Below are positions 15,707-27,186 of a stretch of DNA of 64,000 nt, one piece after another (the stretch's first letter is position 1; each line of letters opens with the position of its first letter). The position numbers and the translations under genes are program-made. The stretch covers positions 23,388-87,387 of the forward strand of contig JAFVUF010000012.1 of assembly GCA_017502875.1 (NCBI GenBank), written 5' to 3'. Origin of the DNA: Clostridia bacterium. Its GTDB lineage: Bacteria; Bacillota; Clostridia; Oscillospirales; CAG-272. The notes below the pieces were generated by a model. That model was not told the DNA's origin. It did no database searches and worked only from the letters and a program-made list of their open reading frames with translations.

Positions 15707-16612
15707 TCAAATGAGTGCGGTGTCATATCCGTTACGAACAGTCGCGTCCGTCTCAGTCGCCTCGCCCGCAAACGCCTCATACTCGGTAACGTCAAGCACC
15801 GTTTCTCCGTCTATCTGCACAGCGGCAGGACGGTCAAATACTACCTTAATGCTCTTACCCTTATGTACCGCGACCATTTTTTCGTGTTTTACATGCTCGC
15901 CCTTGAATATACTTGGAAAGACGGCAAGCGTCTTAATCTTGCTTTTACAGAACATCAGCATAACTGAAAGCTCTCCGTCCGCGCTTTTCCTGTCCTGCTC
16001 AGGCGTAGGCATCATTCCGCCGCCGTAAAAGCGTCCCTTCATCGTAGGCGCAAGCCACACGTTTTCATACCTGTACGTTACCCCGTCAATCGTAACCGTA
16101 GCGCCGGTAGGCTTGTAGTGAAAAAGAAGTCCCTTTATCGCTATCGCGGTGTAATTTACGGGCTTATCCGATTCCGTTTTCAGTCTGTCTCCCACCTCGC
16201 AGCAGTAGCCGTCAATACCGAAGCCGACGTTGTTTAAAAAGCGGTACGTTTTTCCCTTGACCTTAACCGTAGGAAGCCCGATTAGGTATTTAGTTACGTC
16301 AATAGGGTCTCCCGCCTCGCCATCGCTTATGTCATGCAGAAAATCGTTACCGGTTCCGCACGCGTGATAAAAAATCCGACAGCGTATGTCTATTCCCTCG
16401 GTGTTGTTTACGAAGCGGTTCAGCGTTCCGTCGCCTCCGCAAATTATAACGGTGTCCTCCTCTTTAAGCTCCGAAAAAAACGCGCTATAATCCTCTATCC
16501 CCGTAATATCGAGCAGCTCAGCCTCTCCGCCGTAGTATTTAGCGAGTAGCTCGCTGTCCTCCTCGCTTTTTCCTCTTCCCGACAGCGGATTAAACAGAAT
16601 ATACCTTTTCAT
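15707..16612 (-). CDS. diacylglycerol/lipid kinase family protein (DAGK/YegS-like)
   Basis: FNPLSG, GGDGTLN, GTGNDF, GFGIDG, QIDGE; start at MKRYI after GGAGAGG. Confidence 0.9.
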   Translation of the reverse strand: MKRYILFNPLSGRGKSEEDSELLAKYYGGEAELLDITGIEDYSAFFSELKEEDTVIICGGDGTLNRFVNNTEGIDIRCRIFYHACGTGNDFLHDISDGEAGDPIDVTKYLIGLPTVKVKGKTYRFLNNVGFGIDGYCCEVGDRLKTESDKPVNYTAIAIKGLLFHYKPTGATVTIDGVTYRYENVWLAPTMKGRFYGGGMMPTPEQDRKSADGELSVMLMFCKSKIKTLAVFPSIFKGEHVKHEKMVAVHKGKSIKVVFDRPAAVQIDGETVLDVTEYEAFAGEATETDATVRNGYDTALI

Positions 16613-16666
16613 CTGACGCCCTCTCCTCCAAGATAAGCTTTGTTTTTTAATTTTACCCCCCTTAAC

Positions 16667-16683
16667 TAAACTGAAAATAAACT
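16667..16683 (-). promoter_or_regulatory. OmpR-type direct-repeat box at the -35 position of the DAGK gene
   Basis: AGTTTATTTTCAGTTTA on the minus strand, identical to 16762-16778; TAAAAT -10 at 16650-16655. Confidence 0.65.
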
Positions 16684-16718
16684 TTTTTCGACAATTTTTT
16701 CTATTTTTCTGCAATCGC

Positions 16719-16747
16719 TTGATTAAAAAGAGGCTTGGTGTTATAAT
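16719..16747 (+). promoter_or_regulatory. sigmaA promoter of the two-component operon
   Basis: TTGATT-17-TATAAT with extended TG. Confidence 0.7.
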
Positions 16748-16760
16748 ATAGTGGTAAAAG

Positions 16761-16782
16761 CAGTTTATTTTCAGTTTATATA
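16761..16782 (+). promoter_or_regulatory. OmpR-type direct-repeat box downstream of the TCS promoter
   Basis: CAGTTTAT repeated with an 11-bp period (16761, 16772). Confidence 0.65.
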
Positions 16783-16821
16783 AATGCCGTATCATTTAAA
16801 AAAACGAAAGGGAGAAGAAGC

Positions 16822-17496
16822 GTGTTCCATATTTTAGTAGCAGACGACGACAAAAACACCCGTCTTTATCTGAAAGCCGTGTTAAATAAAGCGGGCTATA
16901 CCGTTTCCGTGGCGGAAAACGGCGAGCAGGCGCTTGAAATAATGGAAAAAGAGCATATAGACCTGGCATTGCTTGATATAATGATGCCGAAAATGGACGG
17001 CTATGAATTTACAAAAACTCTACGCGAGGCGCAGAGCAGCCTTCCCATACTTATGGTATCGGCAAAGCAGCTTCCCGAAGATAAGCACAGAGGCTTTTCC
17101 GTCGGCACAGACGACTATATGGTCAAGCCGATAGACGAGGAGGAAATGCTGTATCGCATAAAGGCGCTGCTTCGCAGAGCCAGAATTGAAAGCGAGCGAA
17201 AAATAGTAATCGGAAATGTAACCGTAGATTTTGATTCTATGACGGTTACGGGGAACGGACAGATACAGGAGCTTCCGCAAAAGGAATTTCTGCTACTTTA
17301 CAAGCTGCTCTCATACCCCGGAAAGATATTCACCCGCATACAGCTTATGGACGAGATATGGGGAATGGACAGCAGTACAGGCTGGGAAACCGTAACCGTA
17401 CATATAGGCAGACTCCGCAAGCGCTTTGAGGGCTGGAAGGAATTCGAAATAGAATCGGTACGCGGACTTGGATACAAGGCGGTGAAAAAGCTATGA
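16822..17496 (+). CDS. OmpR-family response regulator (HssR-like)
   Basis: ILVADDD, LLDIMMP, DDYMVKP, FTRIQLMDEIWG, TVTVHIGRLR, VRGLGYK. Confidence 0.92.
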   Translation: MFHILVADDDKNTRLYLKAVLNKAGYTVSVAENGEQALEIMEKEHIDLALLDIMMPKMDGYEFTKTLREAQSSLPILMVSAKQLPEDKHRGFSVGTDDYMVKPIDEEEMLYRIKALLRRARIESERKIVIGNVTVDFDSMTVTGNGQIQELPQKEFLLLYKLLSYPGKIFTRIQLMDEIWGMDSSTGWETVTVHIGRLRKRFEGWKEFEIESVRGLGYKAVKKL

Positions 17497-18566
17497 AGGA
17501 AAAAAGACTTGACAGAAAGCAGAGATTTTCACTTACGCTTCTCTTTTCCGCCGTTGTCTTCATTATACTTCTCGTGGCTATATCTCTGGCGGCGCTCGCA
17601 GTCGGGCTTCTGTTTCATTTCAAGGTTATAGGCGGCGGATATGACTCAATAAAAATCAGCGATATAATAATTTTCATGGCGCTGATAAGCGCTATTCTCG
17701 GAATAGCGATAACCTTCCTCGCCGTAAAATTCCCGCTTCGCCCCATAAACACCCTGATAAATAAAATGAACGCCTTAGCGGCGGGCAACTACAACACCAG
17801 ACTTGAATACAAGGGAGTAATAGACGCAATTCCCGGCTTTAACGAGCTGACCGAAAGCTTTAATAAGCTCGCAGGTGAGCTTGATAGCACCGAAATGCTC
17901 CGAAGCGACTTCATAAATAACTTTTCTCACGAATTCAAAACGCCGATAGTATCTATATCGGGGCTTGCGAGGCTTCTGAAAAACGCGGAGCTGACCGACG
18001 AGGAAAAAAAGCAGTATATAGACGCAATCGACGAGGAGGCGACACGCCTTTCAAGCATGGCGACAAACGTCCTCAGTCTCACCAAGGTCGAAAGCCAAGC
18101 CATACTAAGCTCGGTCAGCAGCTATAACATCTCCGAGCAGCTGCGCTCCTGCCTGCTTCTTCTGGAAAGCAAATGGTCAAAAAAGAACATTGAGCTGCAA
18201 ATAGAGCTTGAAGAATATCAGATAGAGGCAAATGAGGAGCTGCTAAAACAGGTGTTTATAAACCTCATAGACAACGCGGTGAAATTTTCTCCGAGGTGCG
18301 CTACGGTTGCTATTGACATAACGGATACCGAAGATGAGATAACCGTTTCCGTAAGCAATACGGGGAGCGAGATACCGCCGGATAAGATAGATAAGATATT
18401 CGGAAAATTCTATCAGGCGGAGGAATCTCATTCGGGCGAGGGCAACGGAGTAGGACTTGCGATAGTCAAGCGCATAGTCGAGCTTCACAAGGGAAGCGTC
18501 GCGGTAAAAAGCGGAAACGGTCTGACCGTTTTCAGCGTAAGGCTCCCCAAAAAACAAAGCGTATAA
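17493..18566 (+). CDS. HAMP sensor histidine kinase (HssS-like; two TM segments with a short loop)
   Basis: FSHEFKTP H-box, NLIDNAVKF, GNGVGLAI. Confidence 0.92.
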   Translation: MKEKRLDRKQRFSLTLLFSAVVFIILLVAISLAALAVGLLFHFKVIGGGYDSIKISDIIIFMALISAILGIAITFLAVKFPLRPINTLINKMNALAAGNYNTRLEYKGVIDAIPGFNELTESFNKLAGELDSTEMLRSDFINNFSHEFKTPIVSISGLARLLKNAELTDEEKKQYIDAIDEEATRLSSMATNVLSLTKVESQAILSSVSSYNISEQLRSCLLLLESKWSKKNIELQIELEEYQIEANEELLKQVFINLIDNAVKFSPRCATVAIDITDTEDEITVSVSNTGSEIPPDKIDKIFGKFYQAEESHSGEGNGVGLAIVKRIVELHKGSVAVKSGNGLTVFSVRLPKKQSV

Positions 18567-18587
18567 AGGATAATTAAGGTCTAAGCA

Positions 18588-19232
18588 ATGGAATTTATTT
18601 ACTGTATACTTATCGGCTACTTTGTAGGAGCGCTTAACCCTACGTATATCATCGCGAAAATAAAAGGCTTTGATATACGCAAAAAGGGCTCGCGCAACGC
18701 GGGAGCGTCAAACGCACTCATAAATTTCGGCGCGGCAGTCGGGATACTGTGCGGCGCGTTTGATATTTTCAAGGCTACGGGCGCGATACTGCTTTCTCAG
18801 CTCCTTATGCCGCATTTCACCTATGCTCTTGCCGTAACGGGAACGGCGTGTATAATCGGGCATATTTTTCCGTTCTATATGGGCTTCAAGGGCGGCAAGG
18901 GAACCTCGTGCCTTGCGGGAACCGTGCTTGCTTTCGATTGGCGGGTTTTTCTGATAATGTTAGCGATAGAAATAGCTGTCGTGCTGATAAGCGACTACCT
19001 GTGCTTTTTGCCGATAAGCGTCAGCATAGCGCTCCCGATAGTCTACGGAGTTATGAGAAGCGACCTTATCGGCTCGCTTATTCTCGGTATCTCGACAGTC
19101 GTAATACTCATAAAGAACATTGAAAACATAACAAGAATAACGCAAGGGCGTGAAATGCACCTGAGCTACCTCTGGAATAAGGATAAAGAGACCGAGCGAA
19201 TGAAAAACGCAACCGACGGAAAATATGAATAA
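18588..19232 (+). CDS. plsY: glycerol-3-phosphate acyltransferase PlsY family
   Basis: DIRKKGSRNAGASN, DIFKA, GHIFP..FKGGKG. Confidence 0.85.
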   Translation: MEFIYCILIGYFVGALNPTYIIAKIKGFDIRKKGSRNAGASNALINFGAAVGILCGAFDIFKATGAILLSQLLMPHFTYALAVTGTACIIGHIFPFYMGFKGGKGTSCLAGTVLAFDWRVFLIMLAIEIAVVLISDYLCFLPISVSIALPIVYGVMRSDLIGSLILGISTVVILIKNIENITRITQGREMHLSYLWNKDKETERMKNATDGKYE

Positions 19233-19236
19233 AAGC

Positions 19237-19268
19237 AGCGGGCTGTCAAAAAAACGACAGCCCGCTTT
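19237..19268. terminator. intrinsic terminator after plsY
   Basis: AGCGGGCTGTC/GACAGCCCGCT followed by TT. Confidence 0.75.
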
Positions 19269-19358
19269 AATTATAATGTTTTTTCTTCTTTGTTAATAAG
19301 GAAGCGGTAAAGCCTACCTCTCCGAAAGCCGCGGCAAAGCCCTGCCAGAAATAATTCT

Positions 19359-19793
19359 CTATTTTTCCGTTTCCTTGATACCTGACAGCTCCTCCACCTC
19401 GGACAGCTCAACCTTTAAGTCGCCCTTGGATACAAGGAATCTGCGAATAGCGAACAGTCCGCCTATACAGAGCACGCTCGCTACGTTCAAAAGGGGATTG
19501 CTGTGATTTACGATAACCTGACGGGCAATAGCTACTATAAGAACCTCAAGCGTGTTTGCGGGAGTAAGATTTATAAGCATACGAACAAACTCAAGACCGA
19601 CGACGATAGCGAGTATATTGTTTAAGAACATATCAACGCTCTCAAAATATCCGCTGACGGCAAACATCTTGTAAACCTCGTAGCCGGTGAGAAATATAAG
19701 CACCAATATCATAAGAACAGCTATGATATATTCAAGAATATGTACTGCGCAATGAAAAAATCTGCTTGACGGAGTGTTAACTGTTTTTTTCAT
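19359..19793 (-). CDS. small membrane protein, PsiE-like family (tentative)
   Basis: Four hydrophobic segments with VVGLEF..ML and EVLIVAIARQVI motifs; own promoter TTGACA-17-TAGAAT at 19827-19855. Confidence 0.65.
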   Translation of the reverse strand: MKKTVNTPSSRFFHCAVHILEYIIAVLMILVLIFLTGYEVYKMFAVSGYFESVDMFLNNILAIVVGLEFVRMLINLTPANTLEVLIVAIARQVIVNHSNPLLNVASVLCIGGLFAIRRFLVSKGDLKVELSEVEELSGIKETEK

Positions 19794-19978
19794 ACGGTTT
19801 TCCCTTCTCTTACAGTTTTTTTATTTATTCTACCTTTTTTTCTCAAAATTGTCAATATATAATACAGTTTTTATACAATTTGTTCACCGTTATCATTCAA
19901 AAAACAAAGCCTGTTATTAATTTTTCAGCGCTTGAATATTATTCCGCTTTCCGCAAATTTAAACGTGTAAGGAAGAAT

Positions 19979-20002
19979 AAAAGCGGATTATAATCTGCTT
20001 TT
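19979..20002 (-). terminator. terminator after the AraC gene
   Basis: AAAGCGGATTA/TAATCTGCTTT inverted repeat. Confidence 0.55.
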
Positions 20003-20750
20003 ATTCCTGTTTTATGTTAGCATATTCAGACATATGTTGTTTGCGGTACTGAAGGGGCGAAAGACCGGTATGTTTTTTGAAGCAGCTGGAAAAATAGAAG
20101 GGGTCTTGAAAGCCGCACTTTGCGGAAATAACCCCAATACTGTCGTATGTAGGCATAACAAGTAATTGTTTTGCGCGTTCAATACGAAGCTCGGTAAGAT
20201 AATTATTCGGCGTTTTTTGCGTTTGCGCCTTAAAGCTTCTTCTCATATAGTCTGTGTTATATCCCATATTCTTAATTTCAGCGCAAATATCAAAGTCGGA
20301 ATTTTCTATATTTTCAAAAATAGTATTTTTTAGTCTCTCTACCTTCCAGTCATAATTTTTAGTATATAGAAAGCGGTTTGCGTATTGAAGCAGGGCATGG
20401 GCAAGGCTATTAGCTATTGATTGATAGTTATCCTCCTTTTTGTTTATGATTTCACTTATCATAAACGCAAGCTTCTCGGCGCACCCGTTATTATCGTGAA
20501 AGAACAAGGGCGCGGTAAAATCCGAAGATACTATATGAATTATCAAATCGGAAAACCCTTCTTCCGAGTAGTCATAATGAATAGTATCGGGCGGCAGAAA
20601 ATACATATCGCCGCGCGACACATTATACGTTTGATCACCTACCGTCGTATGAGTATCGCCGTTAATCCTATAAACTATCTCTATACAACTGTGTTTGTGT
20701 TTTTTTGAACATAACATATCCGTGTTAATCGCAGACTGCAAAACCTTCAT
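20001..20750 (-). CDS. AraC-family regulator with cupin sensor domain
   Basis: HKHSCIEI cupin motif; RIERAKQLL, CGFQDPFYFSSCFKKHTGLSPLQYR HTH. Confidence 0.92.
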   Translation of the reverse strand: MKVLQSAINTDMLCSKKHKHSCIEIVYRINGDTHTTVGDQTYNVSRGDMYFLPPDTIHYDYSEEGFSDLIIHIVSSDFTAPLFFHDNNGCAEKLAFMISEIINKKEDNYQSIANSLAHALLQYANRFLYTKNYDWKVERLKNTIFENIENSDFDICAEIKNMGYNTDYMRRSFKAQTQKTPNNYLTELRIERAKQLLVMPTYDSIGVISAKCGFQDPFYFSSCFKKHTGLSPLQYRKQHMSEYANIKQE

Positions 20751-20773
20751 ATTTTCCCCTCCGTTCTGACAAC

Positions 20774-20852
20774 AGAATATCACAAAAAGTCGGTATTGTC
20801 AAGATTTATGTCGTAATTTAATATTGCGTTTTTTATAACAATCTAATATACT
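20774..20852. promoter_or_regulatory. divergent promoters for araC and the GRE operon
   Basis: Minus: TTGACA(20797-20802)-17-TATTCT; plus: TTGCGT(20824)-17-TATACT. Confidence 0.6.
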
Positions 20853-20893
20853 GTCCTTGTAAAATACAGGGCTGTGAGAGGAGAAAACAAACG

Positions 20894-22987
20894 GTGAATT
20901 GTCGCATTGAAAAATTACTCAATATTGTTCTTAAAGAAAACTATCCGTTCCGCTGTAAAGACGGTCATATAGGCTCTAAGCTTGCAGACGCAAACGAAAG
21001 CGAACGACTGAGAATTATTAAAGAGGAATACGCTAAGGTAATTGAAATTGACGAAGTATCTCTTTTAGCAGGCTATTATCCCACCATTTCATTTACTGAA
21101 TTCAATAAAATAGATGATTCAAGCGCCAAAGCCATGCTAAATGAAAAATACACTCCTTGTAATACTAACATTTATAAGGTAGGCGGACACCACTTCGACT
21201 CTGATTTCGAAGGTGTAATAACAAACGGCTTCTCGGGACTTTTGGAGCAAATAGAGAGTAAAAGAGATATTGTTACAGACGAAGAGCAAAAGAAATTTCT
21301 TGATGAGCTGCGCTATGCGGCTCAGGCTGTAATAGCTTGGACACAGGCTTACGCCGAAGCGCTCCGTATAGCAGCCGAGAAAGAAACGTCAAAAGAGAGA
21401 AGCGCCGAGCTGCTTCAAATGGCAGATATATGTAGCCGTGTTCCAAGACTTCCCGCCACAAATTTCCGCGAGGCAATTCAAAGCTATTACTTCACATTTA
21501 TCCTTTACCCCGATGGACTAGGACGGCTGGATCAGTATTTATATCCTTATTATTCAGCGGATATTGAAAAGGGAATTTTAACTAAGCAAGACGCGCTGCA
21601 TCTGATTGAGGAGTTATTCATTAAAGTATTCGCGTCAAACGGCAAAAAAGAAGTCCGCAGCGCAAATAATCATTGCGTGGTTGGTGGATATACACCTAAC
21701 GGGGAGTGCGGACATAACGAATGTACCTCCTTAATACTAAAAGCGGTAACCGAATTACCCACTTGGCGCCCGCAGGTATCATACCGTGTTACGGCGAAAA
21801 CAACGTCAGAGCAGCTAAGTGAAGTAGTCGAAATGAACTACAAGCGCCACGACCTGATTATGTTCCTGAACGACGATGCGATTATAAACGGACTTTTAAG
21901 CGTAGGCGTAGAGCGCGCGGATGCCATTAATTATTCTTCTTCGGGATGCAACGAAACCGTACTCACGGGCTGCTCTCAGATGGGGGCGTTAGAGGGGCAC
22001 GTTAATCTCATGCATAGCTTGGAAAAAATGATGAAGGATACGGAAAAACTAAAATCCTTTAATGATTTTGATGAGTTTTACGCCGCGTATGAGGACTATC
22101 TTAGCGAGGATTTGGATTTTATTTTCAGATTTTCATATGATCGCGATTCGGTTATGGCGCTCCAGCCTCGAATTCTGCAATCATTACTTACAACGGGCTG
22201 TATAGACTCAGCGACTCCCATAATGAGAGGCGGCGCAAAATACAATTTTTGCACATGGTGCTTAACAGGTCTTGTAAACTTAGCCAACTCTCTGAGTATT
22301 ATCAAGCAGACCGTATTTGATGAAAAGCGCTTCACTCTTACCGAGCTTAGCCGTTTTCTCGAAAACAACTGGAAGGGCTACGAGGGGCAACGAGCTTATA
22401 TCATAAACAACTGTCGGTATTTTGGAAACGATGACGATTATGTTGATCTTCTGATTAACAGGATTGGTGTGTCCGTAAACACATTCGCAAAAAAATACAC
22501 GCCATACCGAGGCGGAAAATATTTATTCGGTACGCTTACAGGCTATGAATTGGCGCATATACATTTCGGGGCAGGCTCCGGAGCCTCTTTGGACGGCAGA
22601 TATGCCTCAGAGCCTTTTGCCGCGTCAATAGATTCCTTCCCCGGAACAAACACAAACGGAATTACATCGTATTTAAAGTCTGCTTCAAAAATTGACGAAG
22701 CCGTAATACAGTCCTCCGTTGTAGTGAATATGAAGATAGACAGAGCTATTGCGGATACCGAGGAAAAGCGTCAGCGTCTTAATGAAGTTTTGTACACGTA
22801 TTTCAGGCTGGGAGGCATTCAGCTTCAATTAAACTATCTTTCCGCGGATGAGCTGATACAAGCGCAGCAAAATCCTGAGCGCTACCAAAGCTTGCGCGTG
22901 CGCGTTACGGGCTTTTCCGGATTTTTCACTTCTTTTGATAAAGACTTACAAGACGAGCTTATTCAACGCTATTTGCATACAAATTAA
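20894..22987 (+). CDS. glycyl radical enzyme (PFL superfamily), uncharacterised subtype
   Basis: PATNFREAIQ, GRLDQYLYPYY, Cys loop SSGCNE, FGNDDDYVD, SLDGR, Gly loop LRVRVTGFSGFF; GTG start after AGGAG. Confidence 0.92.
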   Translation: MNCRIEKLLNIVLKENYPFRCKDGHIGSKLADANESERLRIIKEEYAKVIEIDEVSLLAGYYPTISFTEFNKIDDSSAKAMLNEKYTPCNTNIYKVGGHHFDSDFEGVITNGFSGLLEQIESKRDIVTDEEQKKFLDELRYAAQAVIAWTQAYAEALRIAAEKETSKERSAELLQMADICSRVPRLPATNFREAIQSYYFTFILYPDGLGRLDQYLYPYYSADIEKGILTKQDALHLIEELFIKVFASNGKKEVRSANNHCVVGGYTPNGECGHNECTSLILKAVTELPTWRPQVSYRVTAKTTSEQLSEVVEMNYKRHDLIMFLNDDAIINGLLSVGVERADAINYSSSGCNETVLTGCSQMGALEGHVNLMHSLEKMMKDTEKLKSFNDFDEFYAAYEDYLSEDLDFIFRFSYDRDSVMALQPRILQSLLTTGCIDSATPIMRGGAKYNFCTWCLTGLVNLANSLSIIKQTVFDEKRFTLTELSRFLENNWKGYEGQRAYIINNCRYFGNDDDYVDLLINRIGVSVNTFAKKYTPYRGGKYLFGTLTGYELAHIHFGAGSGASLDGRYASEPFAASIDSFPGTNTNGITSYLKSASKIDEAVIQSSVVVNMKIDRAIADTEEKRQRLNEVLYTYFRLGGIQLQLNYLSADELIQAQQNPERYQSLRVRVTGFSGFFTSFDKDLQDELIQRYLHTN

Positions 22988-22999
22988 GGAGCGAGCATA

Positions 23000-23836
23000 A
23001 TGGAGCATGGAATGATATTTGACGTTGTGCACGGTTCATTTGTAGACGGTCCGGGCGTCCGTACTGTAATATTTTTTAAAGGATGCAATCTTAGGTGTAA
23101 TTGGTGTCATAATCCGGAAAGTCAAAGCTTTAAAATCGAAATCATGCTTTATAAGAATAAATGCAACGGTTGCGGAATATGTAAGAATGTGTGTCCGCAA
23201 AAGGGAGAGGGCTGTAATTTGTGCGGCGTTTGTACGCAGTACTGTCCGTCGCAGGCAAGAAAGATTTGCGGTAAAATACGGACTGTCGATGAAGTAATGA
23301 CCGAGATTGAAAAAGACAAGGCTTTTTATAATAACCTGAGTGGCGGCGTTACCTTTTCGGGTGGAGAATGTATGCTTCAGCTTAATTTCTTAAAGGCGCT
23401 GCTAAAACGGTGCCATGAAGAAGGAATACACACCGCGGTAGACACAGCAGGCGATGTAGCTTGGGAAAGCTTTGAAGAAATCATTCCTTATACCGATGCG
23501 TTCTTATACGATGTTAAATGCTTCACCGATAAGCTGCATCAGCAGGGCACAGGAGTATCCAATAAGAAAATTTTAGATAACCTGAAAAAGCTGTCAAAAA
23601 CCTTTAAAGGCGATATTTTTATCCGTATTCCGATTATACCGGGATTTAATACAGATGAGGCGGAGCTTTTAAAAATGGCAACGTTTTTGAAAGATATTTC
23701 CTGTAAGAAAACAGAGCTGCTTCCATATCATAAGCTGGGAGCAAATAAATACGCAGCTTTGGGCAGGGAAGAAAAAATTTATACCGTACCGTCAAAAGCA
23801 GATATGGAAAAAATCAATCTCATATTTAATACATAA
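23000..23836 (+). CDS. glycyl-radical activating enzyme (radical SAM with ferredoxin-like insert)
   Basis: DGPGVRT, GCNLRCNWCHNPES, CNGCGIC...CP and CNLCGVC...CP, GGVTFSGGE, LLPYH. Confidence 0.95.
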   Translation: MEHGMIFDVVHGSFVDGPGVRTVIFFKGCNLRCNWCHNPESQSFKIEIMLYKNKCNGCGICKNVCPQKGEGCNLCGVCTQYCPSQARKICGKIRTVDEVMTEIEKDKAFYNNLSGGVTFSGGECMLQLNFLKALLKRCHEEGIHTAVDTAGDVAWESFEEIIPYTDAFLYDVKCFTDKLHQQGTGVSNKKILDNLKKLSKTFKGDIFIRIPIIPGFNTDEAELLKMATFLKDISCKKTELLPYHKLGANKYAALGREEKIYTVPSKADMEKINLIFNT

Positions 23837-23875
23837 ATAATAAATAATAAAAGAAAGGTGAAAAAGGTGAAAAAA

Positions 23876-24346
23876 ATGAAGAAATTAATTATTGGAGCAG
23901 ATGGCTCGGGATATGAGCTGAAGGAGGCTGTAAAGGCATATTTAAACGAAGCGGGTATCAGCTATGACGACGTAGGCGCGCAAAGCTTGGAGGACAGCGT
24001 TCCTTATTATACCACGGCATGCAGAGCCGCTAAAGGAATTTCCGAGGGTAGCTATGAAAAAGGACTTTTGTTCTGCGGAACAGGTATGGGCATGAGTATT
24101 ATCGCAAATAAGCATAAGGGCATCTATGCATCAGTTGTAGAAAGTGTTTACGCCGCTGAAAAATGCCGCGCGATAAATAATTCCAACATTTTGTGTATGG
24201 GCGGATTTATCGTTGGCAGCGAAATGGCGATTGAGATGGTAAAAACATTTTTAAAGACAGAATTTACAGAAAATATGGGTGGTTTTAAGGACTTTTTAAA
24301 ACAAGCCTACGCCGATATTCAAAATATGGAAAACGAACTGTTTTAA
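23876..24346 (+). CDS. RpiB/LacA/LacB family sugar isomerase (atypical residues)
   Basis: IIGAD..G..LK, FCGTGMGMSIIANK, NNSNILCMG. Confidence 0.88.
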   Translation: MKKLIIGADGSGYELKEAVKAYLNEAGISYDDVGAQSLEDSVPYYTTACRAAKGISEGSYEKGLLFCGTGMGMSIIANKHKGIYASVVESVYAAEKCRAINNSNILCMGGFIVGSEMAIEMVKTFLKTEFTENMGGFKDFLKQAYADIQNMENELF

Positions 24347-24543
24347 AAGAATAATAGCGGCGCAGTGAAATACCGAATATATGCTTCCAACGGTATTATC
24401 TTTATCGAAAAATACCGTATATAATGGGTGATGTTCTTAGCGGAGAATTATAAAAATACCACTAAGTGCGAGCATCGCATTTGACCAGTCAAATGCAAAT
24501 GGGCTAAGCCCAAACCCATATACGTAAACCCCTACACAAGCAG

Positions 24544-24595
24544 AAAGAGCAAGAGTAAAAGGAAATAAATCCTTCTATTCTTGCTCTTGTTTTTT
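24544..24595 (+). terminator. probable terminator downstream of the GRE operon
   Basis: AAGAGCAAGAG.../...TTCTTGCTCTT followed by GTTTTTT. Confidence 0.6.
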
Positions 24596-24600
24596 CTTCT

Positions 24601-24772
24601 GTCGATATATCAACTTCGTTGACTCGATATGCTTTCGCTACACTGCGAACCACCAAAATCTCATTCTTCGCTTCGGGGAACCCCAGCCGCTCAAGCTCGA
24701 TATATTGCCGCTACGCACCAATTCGATATTAGATAAATCCCTCGTTTGCGAAGCAAACATATCGAGTGCGAA
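24601..24772. repeat. TCGATAT-linked hairpin array
   Basis: TCGATAT at 24602, 24624, 24697 and 24723, inverted at 24759; hairpins CAAC-TTC-GTTG and GTTTGC-GAA-GCAAAC. Confidence 0.75.
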
Positions 24773-26044
24773 TCATTCAAGAATATATGTGTTCGAATTT
24801 GAATAGCAATATATTTCAATTTGCCATTTACCATTTGAGTAAATAACATCATTTATTCTATAAGCCCAAAATTTATCATTTTCATCATTTTTGTTTTCAT
24901 ATCCAAAATTTTGAGGATTTACCTCTAGCACAAATTGCTTAGCATCATAATAAAAAGAATATTCTTTATTATGATCTTTATCGTTGGGTAAATTTGTTGT
25001 TAGCCACTCACTCTCGCCATCTGAATACCACCGAAAAGAGTAAAATGAGTTTTCCCATTGTTTCCCGAAAACAAGCCTTCCAAATTGTTCCTCGGTAATA
25101 TAATCAAGATATTGGCTCAAATCCCAGTTGTAATTTTGTTTATTGAATTGATAAAGAGCAACATATGCTTCTCTTGCATTTTCGCTATCATTTACGTCTG
25201 TACCATATGCCGATTCAATTGTCCTTATATACTTTTGAATCTGTTTGTATTGCTTTTCTATATCCTCTACATCTTTATAACCCGAAGGTAACTTATTAAT
25301 TAAGGCAGCAATATCATCATTATTGGATTCAGTTACATTTAACATAATTGATGAGAGCTTTTGATATAATTTTTTGTAATATACAGGTATACCAATTGCC
25401 AAGCTTCCTGCAATCAATCCCAAAGTAATGACTATACCGATAATCAGATGTGATTTTTTAATTCTTTTTACTTTTATGTTTTTTTGAGAGACGGATTCTG
25501 TGGTGGCACAAATACTGAATCCCTTAGGCGCAAAGTTAGAGTTGGAAGCTCCATACATATTGATGTAAATCGTTTTGTATTCTTCTCCAGAAGGCAAGAA
25601 GGTATCGTATACGTCAACCATTCCATTGATGCCATCAACACTCATAGAACCGCGGCGATTCCACTTGATAGGGTCGCCGTTGATAGTGCAGAGAGATTTC
25701 AAGTACTTTTCCTGCTCATCGATGCCTACCGTATAAACGGGTTTTTGAGGTACAAGTCCAAAATCAGCATCAAGCTCGTTATGAGGTTGACTAGCTTTAT
25801 TGGCTTCCATGGCTTTTTGTTCTTCAATGATACCAGAATCAAGGATATTGGCAAACGTTTCGTTTTCATCAGTGGGGTTGATAATTTCTTCAGTATTGGG
25901 TTCACTATTTATTTCTATCTTGTTATAATCGGGTGCTACAACGGGAACTTCAATCTTAATACCGCAATACTGGCAAAATCCGCTATCCTGAGGAAGTTCG
26001 TTCTTACAGTTTGGGCAAATAATCTTATCATCAGTTGTTGTCAT
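24773..26044 (-). CDS. zinc-ribbon membrane-anchored hypothetical protein
   Basis: N-terminal CPNC..CQYCG, central TM (LIIGIVITLGLIAGSLAIGIPV), AT-rich; start at MTTTD after GGAG. Confidence 0.8.
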   Translation of the reverse strand: MTTTDDKIICPNCKNELPQDSGFCQYCGIKIEVPVVAPDYNKIEINSEPNTEEIINPTDENETFANILDSGIIEEQKAMEANKASQPHNELDADFGLVPQKPVYTVGIDEQEKYLKSLCTINGDPIKWNRRGSMSVDGINGMVDVYDTFLPSGEEYKTIYINMYGASNSNFAPKGFSICATTESVSQKNIKVKRIKKSHLIIGIVITLGLIAGSLAIGIPVYYKKLYQKLSSIMLNVTESNNDDIAALINKLPSGYKDVEDIEKQYKQIQKYIRTIESAYGTDVNDSENAREAYVALYQFNKQNYNWDLSQYLDYITEEQFGRLVFGKQWENSFYSFRWYSDGESEWLTTNLPNDKDHNKEYSFYYDAKQFVLEVNPQNFGYENKNDENDKFWAYRINDVIYSNGKWQIEIYCYSNSNTYILE

Positions 26045-26501
26045 AATCAATCTCCTTTTTTTCTTCATCGATTACTTTTGTTCCGCATTTTCGACAAAAC
26101 CTGCTACCGTGACTAAGCCCTGTTCCGCATTGCCTGCAAAAGCAAATTTTTTGATTTTGTTCAACCGGTTCTTGTGTAGGTTGATTTTCTTCTAATAATA
26201 GCCCTTGGGTTTCTAATATTTTTGAACCATAACTTGAAAAAAACCATGTCCACAAAAGATATGGTCCGCCAGACGATACTCCGTTTAACGCAACAAAAAA
26301 CACCATTCCAATGAAATTTATACCAAAACAAAGACATTTATATTTTTTCTTGGTTATAGATGCTTTTCTCACTTTTGCAAAAATTATAGGGAATGCACCG
26401 TATACCAAAACGGTCACTATCAGCGAAACCAATATCGCAACAAAAAACAAACCCGGGCTTTCTTGCAACAACTCAAAATAACTCACGATAAATCTCCTCA
26501 A
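26031..26501 (-). CDS. membrane protein with C-terminal zinc ribbon
   Basis: Three hydrophobic segments, FCRQCG..FCRKCGT; overlaps the next gene. Confidence 0.7.
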   Translation of the reverse strand: MRRFIVSYFELLQESPGLFFVAILVSLIVTVLVYGAFPIIFAKVRKASITKKKYKCLCFGINFIGMVFFVALNGVSSGGPYLLWTWFFSSYGSKILETQGLLLEENQPTQEPVEQNQKICFCRQCGTGLSHGSRFCRKCGTKVIDEEKKEIDYDNN

Positions 26502-26556
26502 ACATGATGATTTTTCTATATTATATCACACTATTCTTAAAATGTAAAGCCCATAA

Positions 26557-26585
26557 GTATAAATCTCCTTATTTTGCAGATACTA
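26557..26585 (+). promoter_or_regulatory. sigmaG-like forespore promoter for spoVT
   Basis: GTATA-17-GATACTA resembles the sigmaG consensus. Confidence 0.6.
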
Positions 26586-26622
26586 ACAAGGCAGTAATTT
26601 GCAAAACAAGGAGATTTTTATT

Positions 26623-27186
26623 ATGAAAGCAACCGGAATAGTCCGTAGAATAGACGACCTCGGACGTGTCGTCATACCCAAGGAAATAAGAAGAACAATG
26701 CGAATCCGCGAGGGCGACCCACTTGAAATATACACTGACCGAGAGGGTGAGGTCATATTTAAGAAGTATTCCCCTATCGGCGAGATGAATTCGTTTGCCC
26801 AACAGTATGCGGAAACACTCCATAAGACCTGCGGATTTGGCGTGGTTATCACCGACCGGGACGGCGTTATCGCCTGCGCGGGTGTGCCCAAGAAGGAGTA
26901 TTTTGAAAAGCGTCTCTCTGCCGACCTTGAAAAAATATCGGAAAACCGTTCCCCATACCGCTACCAAAACGGAGACCGTAAGCTCGCCATAATCGACGAC
27001 GCCTCTGGAACGCATTTTATATCGTGCGCCGTTCCGATAATAGCGGACGGAGACCTTATCGGCGCAGTCGTTTCCGCGATGAGCGACGAAACGGACAAAT
27101 CTGCCCGCGACGAGCTGAGAGGCACAGACGTCGAGTACCGACTTGTGCAGACCGCCGCCGCGTTTCTCGCAAGACAGCTGCAATAA
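26623..27186 (+). CDS. spoVT: stage V sporulation protein T
   Basis: MKATGIVRRIDDLGRVVIPKEIRRTMRIREGDPLEI AbrB domain plus GAF-like C-terminus ending AAAFLARQL. Confidence 0.95.
   Translation: MKATGIVRRIDDLGRVVIPKEIRRTMRIREGDPLEIYTDREGEVIFKKYSPIGEMNSFAQQYAETLHKTCGFGVVITDRDGVIACAGVPKKEYFEKRLSADLEKISENRSPYRYQNGDRKLAIIDDASGTHFISCAVPIIADGDLIGAVVSAMSDETDKSARDELRGTDVEYRLVQTAAAFLARQLQ

Follow-up and report, generated by a model that had tools for sequence, protein, structure and literature searches.

The window analysed here, a 64,000-nucleotide (nt) stretch of DNA from a gut Clostridia bacterium (contig JAFVUF010000012.1, positions 23,388 to 87,387), carries at 20001-24346 a four-gene cassette built around an oxygen-sensitive glycyl radical enzyme (GRE). 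The gene for an AraC-family regulator (20001..20783, minus strand; 260 amino acids (aa)) is divergently oriented from three plus-strand genes, which encode the GRE (20894..22987; 697 aa), a GRE-activating radical SAM enzyme (23000..23836; 278 aa) and a non-canonical isomerase of the RpiB/LacAB family (23858..24346; 162 aa). We consider it probable, as the best explanation overall, that this is an intact, acquired cassette in which a GRE of the eliminase or isomerase type is paired with an isomerase for a phosphate-free substrate. All four open reading frames (ORFs) lie where the first-pass annotation, made from the letters alone, had placed them, and the GRE loops SSGCNE and RVTGF, the insert of the activase, the isomerase and the divergent cupin-AraC regulator that it described were all reproduced. 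The AT-richer block that it reported is also there: the GC content is 0.41 at 20001-24346 and 0.392 at 19300-26550, against 0.49 in the remaining window. A Pfam scan of the 12 ORFs at 15707-27186 agreed with its remark on the neighbourhood, detecting no microcompartment shell protein, sugar kinase, recognised transporter or alcohol dehydrogenase, and no glycosidase adjoins the cassette in the same flanking ORFs. The kinases in this interval are limited to the histidine kinase of a two-component system and a DAGK-like protein, whose genes lie in the flank of normal GC content.

The GRE comprises a PFL-like domain (PF02901, 3.3e-98) and a Gly_radical domain (PF01228, 4.5e-22). Its Cys loop, SSGCNE at 349-354, contains a single cysteine, Cys352, and its Gly loop, RVTGF at 670-674, contains the radical-bearing glycine, Gly673. 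The marks of the GRE superfamily (PFL-like barrel and Gly domain, RVxG glycine, Cys-loop cysteine and cognate activase) are all found. The activase matches Radical_SAM (1.3e-18) and Fer4 in Pfam and exceeds the cut-off of TIGR02494 (305.2 vs 174.35); a CX3CX2C motif at 29-36 is followed by CX2CX2CX3C at 55-65 and 72-82, which form a two-cluster ferredoxin-type insert. The full set for radical catalysis is present: Gly673, Cys352 and an adjacent ferredoxin-type activase.

A protein search returned 596 matches at E <= 0.001 among 8000 scored candidates. The best 50 clusters (P0001-P0050) share 44-98% identity with the window GRE, and their full-length members measure 693-712 aa; beyond these clusters, identity is 31-41% for proteins of about 676-709 aa and about 30% for ordinary GREs of 737-1150 aa. 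An exhaustive search of representative proteins gave the same pattern of identity and length, and the closest ESM Atlas clusters are unnamed PFL-like proteins of 706-709 aa. Gly351, Cys352, Glu354, His100, Arg670, Thr672, Gly673 and Phe674 are invariant in 31/31 aligned clade members, Asn353 is kept in at least 90% of them and the initiator methionine is nearly invariant. The short group as a whole is recognised by a G-C-N-E Cys loop combined with an RVRV(T/S)GFS Gly loop, and its genes mostly lie beside AraC genes. Nearly every short representative has GCNE, as do 39/53 GRE ORFs longer than 400 aa from fetched loci, a count biased by the retrieval of the metagenome loci with the peptides LRVRVTGFS and FGTLTGYE. 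A tree was built with FastTree from 90 rows chosen by hand, which sampled 10 of the 50 orthologue clusters along with 20 representatives of the short and 50 of the long proteins, four same-genome paralogues and six locus-derived proteins; its midpoint root serves display only. The short proteins group there in a single 34-row clade with support 98. Within it, the window GRE falls in a sub-clade of 10 rows (support 100) whose sister is a group of 19 rows, and the HypD (P0204) and CutC (P0069) proteins identified by NCBIfam stand among the other 56 rows. By sequence, the window GRE belongs to a conserved clade of about 700-aa proteins that includes no characterised GRE, and Asn353 in the Cys loop is its hallmark. 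The short GCNE type is thereby seen to be widespread and recurrent, rather than a single case.

An AlphaFold2 model of the GRE (pLDDT 87, pTM 0.89) was compared with solved structures by Foldseek, in which solved GREs match at a query TM-score (TMq) of 0.77-0.86 and 19-26% identity. The top folds are propanediol and glycerol dehydratase, HplG, CutC and HypD (TMq 0.82-0.86), none of them singly closest, and the structures of CutC, glycerol/propanediol dehydratase, HypD, YbiW, IslA, HplG and PflD give similar E-values. Not one NCBIfam equivalog cut-off is reached, and the shortfalls are wide, as for HypD (302 against a cut-off of 1100), HpsG (302/1000), HpfG (256/1000), CutC (263/1050), PflD-type (243/1109), IAD (270/1100) and HPAD (198/1150). 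Pyruvate formate-lyase (PFL) has an adjacent Cys-Cys pair; the window GRE has a single cysteine in the loop and scores 73.1 vs 994.2 on the PFL model TIGR01255. The earlier description of this GRE as uncharacterised therefore holds, given the missed cut-offs, the 19-26% identity to solved GREs and a place in the tree apart from HypD and CutC.

With respect to the chemistry, the Cys loop has the C-x-E form (Cys352-Asn353-Glu354, with Cys and Glu invariant), and His100 aligns with His164 of glycerol dehydratase, the proposed proton donor, in a pairwise sequence alignment. In the available portion of a 2026 review, C-x-E is common to the 1,2-eliminases and a new class of isomerases, and the Glu binds the substrate hydroxyl through a hydrogen bond (PMC13450708). 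Because the C-x-E motif is retained and His100 aligns with His164, these features point to a putative cleavage of the eliminase or isomerase type, directed at a C-O (or C-N/C-S) bond. The eliminase-like character noted at first reading is borne out by the same two features; C-C cleavage, offered then as another option, finds nothing that favours such chemistry. In the same alignment the glycerol dehydratase loops carrying His281/Ser282 and Tyr339 fall in gaps, and the deletion of these two active-site loops suggests that the pocket of the window GRE may be larger and differently lined.

The putative isomerase matches LacAB_rpiB in Pfam (3.2e-42) and passes the broad subfamily model TIGR00689 (118.7 vs 88.3), and it misses the rpiB equivalogs TIGR01120 (109.3 vs 138.65) and PRK05571 (133 vs 135). 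A second LacAB_rpiB gene lies on contig C4 of the same genome and scores 202.8 bits vs 144 for the window copy; no RpiA was found in this genome, which is 95.7% complete. Because the genome holds this second, canonical and better-scoring RpiB, the window protein is, from its sequence, an extra paralogue with a predicted dedicated role. Its 29 closest homologue clusters (62-99% identity) all keep the catalytic residues Asp15, Cys73 and Thr75, which align with those of solved RpiBs, as well as Asn107. At the two positions occupied by histidine in RpiB, the window protein has Gly16 (Gly or Ser in 29/29 of these clusters) and Ile106 (R-A-I-N for R-x-H-N; Ile in 29/29), and it is without the C-terminal GGRHxxR. 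The D-H, R-x-H-N and GGRHxxR motifs are all present in the solved RpiBs (3HE8, 1O1X and 1NN4) and in the genome's own canonical RpiB. In Leishmania RpiB, studied by mutagenesis and modelling, the phosphate is anchored by His11, Arg137 and Arg141, enzyme activity requires His102 (H102N is inactive) and His138 takes part in ring opening or substrate binding, according to the available text (PMC4783025). Since the phosphate-anchoring and essential His residues are lost and the Asp, Cys and Thr that serve ene-diol isomerisation are kept, the simplest reading is that the window protein would be an ene-diol isomerase for a phosphate-free, perhaps ring-free substrate. Relatives of about 50% identity form a D-K-S-G branch, with D-K and a different tail. 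At three loci in three genomes (L082, G648:C50; L083, G755:C19; L084, G676:C111), this branch adjoins split transketolase, Fe-alcohol dehydrogenase, ABC transporter and EamA genes and appears to mark another uncharacterised carbohydrate module.

The regulator combines an N-terminal ligand-binding cupin (AraC_binding, 4.2e-07) with a C-terminal double helix-turn-helix (HTH; HTH_18, 1.8e-20; HTH_AraC, 6e-16), the arrangement of the AraC/XylS family, and reaches no NCBIfam equivalog. Its start is probably ATG 20750, which would give 249 aa, because homologues measure 240-249 aa and a GGAGG ribosome-binding site lies 8 nt ahead. The DNA between the AraC and GRE genes measures 110 nt, or 143 nt (20751..20893) with the start at 20750; this divergent control region contains promoter-like hexamers on the plus strand (20796-20824/5) and the minus strand (20802-20774), which are consensus matches only. 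Ribosome-binding sites precede all three plus-strand genes: GAGGAG stands before the GRE start GTG 20894, and AAGGAG before the activase, whose start is 12 nt past the GRE stop. The start of the RpiB-like gene is probably ATG 23876, predicted to give 156 aa, because of the lengths of its homologues and a ribosome-binding site; depending on this choice, the gap behind the activase is 21-39 nt.

Regarding the conservation of the cassette, orthologous loci in other genomes show AraC and the activase beside the GRE. Among loci seen directly, L013 and L016 have an AraC orthologue (44% and 68% identity, respectively) upstream of their GRE gene, and an activase homologue stands downstream of it in L013, L014, L015 and L060. 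The last three represent one locus type, in genome G719, which contains the GRE and activase and is without the AraC and RpiB-like genes. In a second orthologous locus (L001), genes for a xylose-isomerase-like TIM barrel and for an aldo-keto reductase come after the GRE, and in L017 the GRE faces another GRE-activase pair. Seven further contigs (4012, 4731, 5029, 6061, 12995, 13155 and 14265 nt) are inferred to carry a clade GRE together with a close RpiB-like gene, from equal-sized contigs shared by protein clusters whose DNA itself was unseen; with the window's own contig, the size coincidences number eight. By the same approach, six further contigs would contain a clade GRE and an orthologous AraC gene, with 0 for non-clade GREs. 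Three control comparisons, with non-clade GREs and distant RpiB-like proteins, gave 0 matches, and a single match, put down to chance, came from one unrelated pairing. AraC and the activase are thus the core partners of the GRE, and the RpiB-like protein is an accessory that recurs across at least five lineages. The conserved link to rpiB envisaged at first stands in part, since it recurs on the seven further contigs and is absent from G719 and several long contigs.

The cassette is sparsely distributed. No GRE orthologue was found in the 12 other genomes of the genus, in which the best match is a 35% identical paralogue of the sister clade, nor in the 399 other genomes of the class sample. 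One of the 400 other genomes of the order sample contains an orthologue, and the close RpiB-like protein, rare like the GRE, occurs in 0/400 of the latter; the class and order counts are lower bounds, with only two candidates scored in many genomes. An exact-peptide search of genome contigs with peptides of the window GRE gave three loci. Six runs labelled as gut metagenomes contain the whole stretch, and the source sample may be among them; short near-identical pieces occur in four further gut/feces metagenome runs. Because of the low GC content, the patchy distribution and the dispersed repeat directly downstream, the cassette was probably acquired horizontally. In the surrounding chromosome, SpoVT occurs in 12/12 other genomes of the genus, its 1.5-kb/~10-kb flanks in four of them are without the window's PlsY-side neighbours, and gene order is fluid.

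The spacer 3' of the cassette contains the repeat (24423..24770, not assigned to a strand), which is probably a dispersed element like a miniature inverted-repeat transposable element (MITE). It carries CGATAT-containing direct and inverted repeats and folds as a three-way junction with a terminator-like hairpin (z = -6.95). The hairpin, at 24545-24588 on the plus strand and followed by a T run, probably ends the operon, as predicted from its form. The repeat is single-copy in its own genome and is matched in 23/80 related genomes, with up to 11 matches per genome, often at contig ends. In four gut/feces runs, metagenome depth is 197-854 in the bins at 24218-25019 vs about 0.4-25 over the cassette genes. 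No tRNA gene, Rfam family, or plasmid or phage match was found in 24423-24770. Elsewhere in the AT-rich block, a 144-aa membrane protein (19359-19793, minus strand) matches nothing in Pfam or NCBIfam. Also on the minus strand, at 24773-26068 and 26031-26501, are two genes of 34-36% GC for zinc-ribbon proteins (431 and 156 aa).

Several other GRE arrangements were seen. The genome of the window (G000, 1.65 Mb) contains six GRE-family loci, on contigs C8, C18, C28, C19, C7 and C4 (loci L004-L008), including a 696-aa protein without C-x-E (C18) and an 841-aa C-V-E enzyme with its own activase (C7); its density of GRE genes is unusually high. Loci of sister-clade GCNE enzymes in the range L020-L051 (e.g., L026, L031, L036, L038 and L045) hold two or three GRE genes and several AraC genes; in L026, genes for a reverse transcriptase and a TraG-like protein lie nearby. 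Four homologues of 871-884 aa (P0067, P0080, P0081 and P0090), with 31-33% identity to the window GRE, are regulator-enzyme fusions in which an AraC-type HTH (PF12833, PF00165) is joined to the PFL-like domain. In a Clostridia metagenome-assembled genome, a stand-alone 88-aa glycine-radical-domain protein (L003:6783-7049, plus strand), 78% identical to the C-terminus of the window GRE, sits between the DegV and topoisomerase I genes; it may serve the clade as a spare radical domain in the manner of GrcA, or be a remnant.

In the proposed pathway, the AraC protein would sense the substrate and turn the operon on. The activase would install the radical on Gly673, giving rise to a thiyl radical on Cys352, which would abstract a hydrogen beside a hydroxyl; Glu354 would deprotonate that hydroxyl and His100 would assist the departure of the vicinal group. 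A carbonyl product would then be formed by dehydration or ring-opening isomerisation, with cleavage of a C-O bond, that of C-N or C-S being less likely. The RpiB-like enzyme would move the carbonyl along an alpha-hydroxy-carbonyl unit, most likely by interconverting the alpha-hydroxy-aldehyde and alpha-hydroxy-ketone forms of a compound without phosphate that the GRE uses or makes. Our leading guess, held tentatively, is that the substrate is a free small sugar, an anhydro-sugar or a polyol. The first-pass annotation had proposed a sugar or polyol coupled to aldose-ketose isomerisation, which keeps its plausibility through the isomerase neighbour, its sole basis, and loses ground with the absence of that neighbour from one complete genome, the isomerase's lack of the canonical sugar-phosphate residues and sister clades without sugar genes.

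Several results weigh against the reading of an eliminase- or isomerase-type GRE with a phosphate-free sugar isomerase. The GRE misses TIGR01774, the PFL2/glycerol dehydratase subfamily model on which long GREs typically score 678-910, with 345 vs 678.2 bits over model positions 138-784, and its active site was mapped by pairwise sequence alignment at about 25-30% identity. Outside the window, the linkage to the RpiB-like gene comes from contig sizes, as described above. This gene is missing beside the 52%-identical orthologue in L014, L015 and L060; no close RpiB-like gene was found at E <= 1e-38 in G719, listed as 100% complete, and, among the RpiB-like clusters listed, none matches in size the long contigs of the orthologue clusters P0010 (300 kb), P0024 (239 kb), P0014 (72 kb), P0017 (70-80 kb) and P0004 (56 kb). 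These absences would suit a passenger, an ordinary pentose-phosphate or other isomerase without a role in the GRE pathway. We hold such a passenger to be improbable, because a canonical RpiB is present elsewhere in the genome, the gene shares the low GC content of the cassette and is tightly spaced behind the activase, seven independent size coincidences stand against none in three controls, and 29/29 close homologues have other residues in place of the phosphate-anchoring and essential His. The split transketolase beside the relatives of about 50% identity hints at phosphorylated sugars for the wider RpiB-like family. Finally, the neighbours of sister GCNE enzymes are short-chain dehydrogenase/reductase (SDR), M20 peptidase, beta-lactamase-fold, phosphotriesterase-family, EamA and alpha/beta-hydrolase genes and, these being non-sugar genes, the wider GCNE clade is not obviously directed at carbohydrates.

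Such neighbours lead to another reading, in which the GRE, as possibly also its sister clades, acts on a hydroxylated metabolite of the gut that is not a carbohydrate, for instance a modified amino acid or the product released from an ester, lactone or amide, and the RpiB-like protein isomerises its alpha-hydroxy-carbonyl product or acts otherwise. It would fit an RpiB-like protein without sugar-phosphate-binding residues and a cassette that no sugar transporter, kinase or glycosidase adjoins, and several characterised C-x-E GREs use hydroxyprolines, choline or sulfonates, as given in the available portion of the review (PMC13450708). We judge it rather unlikely, since the accessory genes of the orthologues are of carbohydrate type (RpiB/LacAB here; the xylose-isomerase-like TIM barrel and aldo-keto reductase in L001) and the neighbour types of the sister clades are absent beside the window sub-clade in the loci seen. 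That the GRE is simply a divergent member of a characterised family (glycerol/propanediol dehydratase, HypD, CutC, IslA/HpsG, YbiW/PflD or PFL) is very improbable: the fold and C-x-E are common to it and these families, and sequence matches in the Protein Data Bank to characterised GRE families reach E 4e-73 to 2e-52, but the HypD, HpsG, CutC, PflD-type and PFL equivalog models are widely missed, the window GRE is equidistant from all solved GREs at the low Foldseek identities given above, and it stands in a separate clade with support 98. Still more remote is a truncated or inactive copy of a normal 790-850-aa eliminase. The GRE is about 90 aa shorter than characterised eliminases, and its alignment to TIGR01774 (786 positions) begins only at position 138, which had left room for the relic considered at the outset; yet full-length orthologues among the best 50 clusters share its length of 693-712 aa and its start, with Met1 nearly invariant, the nearest ESM Atlas clusters are of similar length, the catalytic residues are all invariant in the 31 aligned members, and the N-terminus is modelled confidently (pLDDT of 78-98 per ten-residue block over residues 1-250).

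The preferred reading, an intact acquired cassette with a GRE of the eliminase or isomerase type and a phosphate-free-substrate isomerase, makes this locus a sound lead for enzyme discovery. To our knowledge, the chemistry of gut GREs is beyond the reach of any oxygen-dependent enzyme. Newly assigned GRE clades have each revealed a new nutrient or a metabolite relevant to the host, for example hydroxyproline, choline, isethionate and 1,5-anhydroglucitol. Whole GRE clades still await validation, according to the available portion of the 2026 review (PMC13450708). No paper was found on the GCNE clade of about 700-aa GREs or on a link between a GRE and RpiB, in a literature search that covered subscription journals thinly; the clade may appear in the supplementary trees of PMC11528403. 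The cassette offers a compact four-gene test system for short GCNE GREs, its RpiB-like partner narrows the substrate search to phosphate-free compounds with an alpha-hydroxy-carbonyl form, and its dedicated AraC sensor is usable as a reporter for the inducer. It is possible, although doubtful, that the cassette represents a novel way to process small sugars, anhydro-sugars or polyols anaerobically in their free, non-phosphorylated form, in which a GCNE GRE with an enlarged pocket catalyzes a radical dehydration or ring opening and the carbonyl product passes to an RpiB-family isomerase that would be the first one adapted to a substrate without phosphate, and that the whole clade of about 700-aa GCNE enzymes is a new many-substrate GRE class of gut Clostridia.

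Among the known systems, glycerol dehydratase (1R8W) and propanediol dehydratase (5I2G) are B12-independent, C-O-cleaving GRE 1,2-eliminases. The window GRE shares with them the ten-stranded GRE barrel (TMq 0.83-0.84), the C-x-E Cys loop, the aligned His, the RVxG Gly loop and a ferredoxin-type activase. It differs in its 25-26% identity, in being about 90 aa shorter, in the Asn that replaces Val/Ile inside C-x-E, in the gapped His281/Ser282 and Tyr339 loops, in missing TIGR01774 and in having no microcompartment or alcohol dehydrogenase genes near it. The isomerases YbiW and PflD (8ID7 and 8ID0) also have C-x-E and similar folds (TMq 0.81-0.84), at 23-25% identity and with the PflD-type equivalog missed (243 vs 1109). 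Their substrates are 1,5-anhydroglucitol- and 1,5-anhydromannitol-6-phosphate, in contrast to the window, where the partner isomerase is without phosphate anchors. These substrates of carbohydrate type are processed outside microcompartments, as described in the available portion of the review (PMC13450708). The RpiBs of E. coli (1NN4/2VVR), C. thermocellum (3HE8) and T. maritima (1O1X) share the LacAB_rpiB fold family, the catalytic Asp, Cys and Thr and the Asn with the window isomerase, which has Gly/Ser after the Asp, Ile in R-x-H-N and no GGRHxxR, and misses the equivalog. The sister short GCNE cassettes of gut Clostridia have GREs of about 700 aa with GCNE and RVRV(T/S)GFS loops, AraC and a ferredoxin-type activase, all within the clade of support 98. 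Their GREs are 30-41% identical to that of the window and are accompanied by other accessory genes, with no RpiB-like gene in the loci examined. What is particular to the window is the sub-clade together with its phosphate-anchor-less RpiB-like partner, rather than a new category of system.

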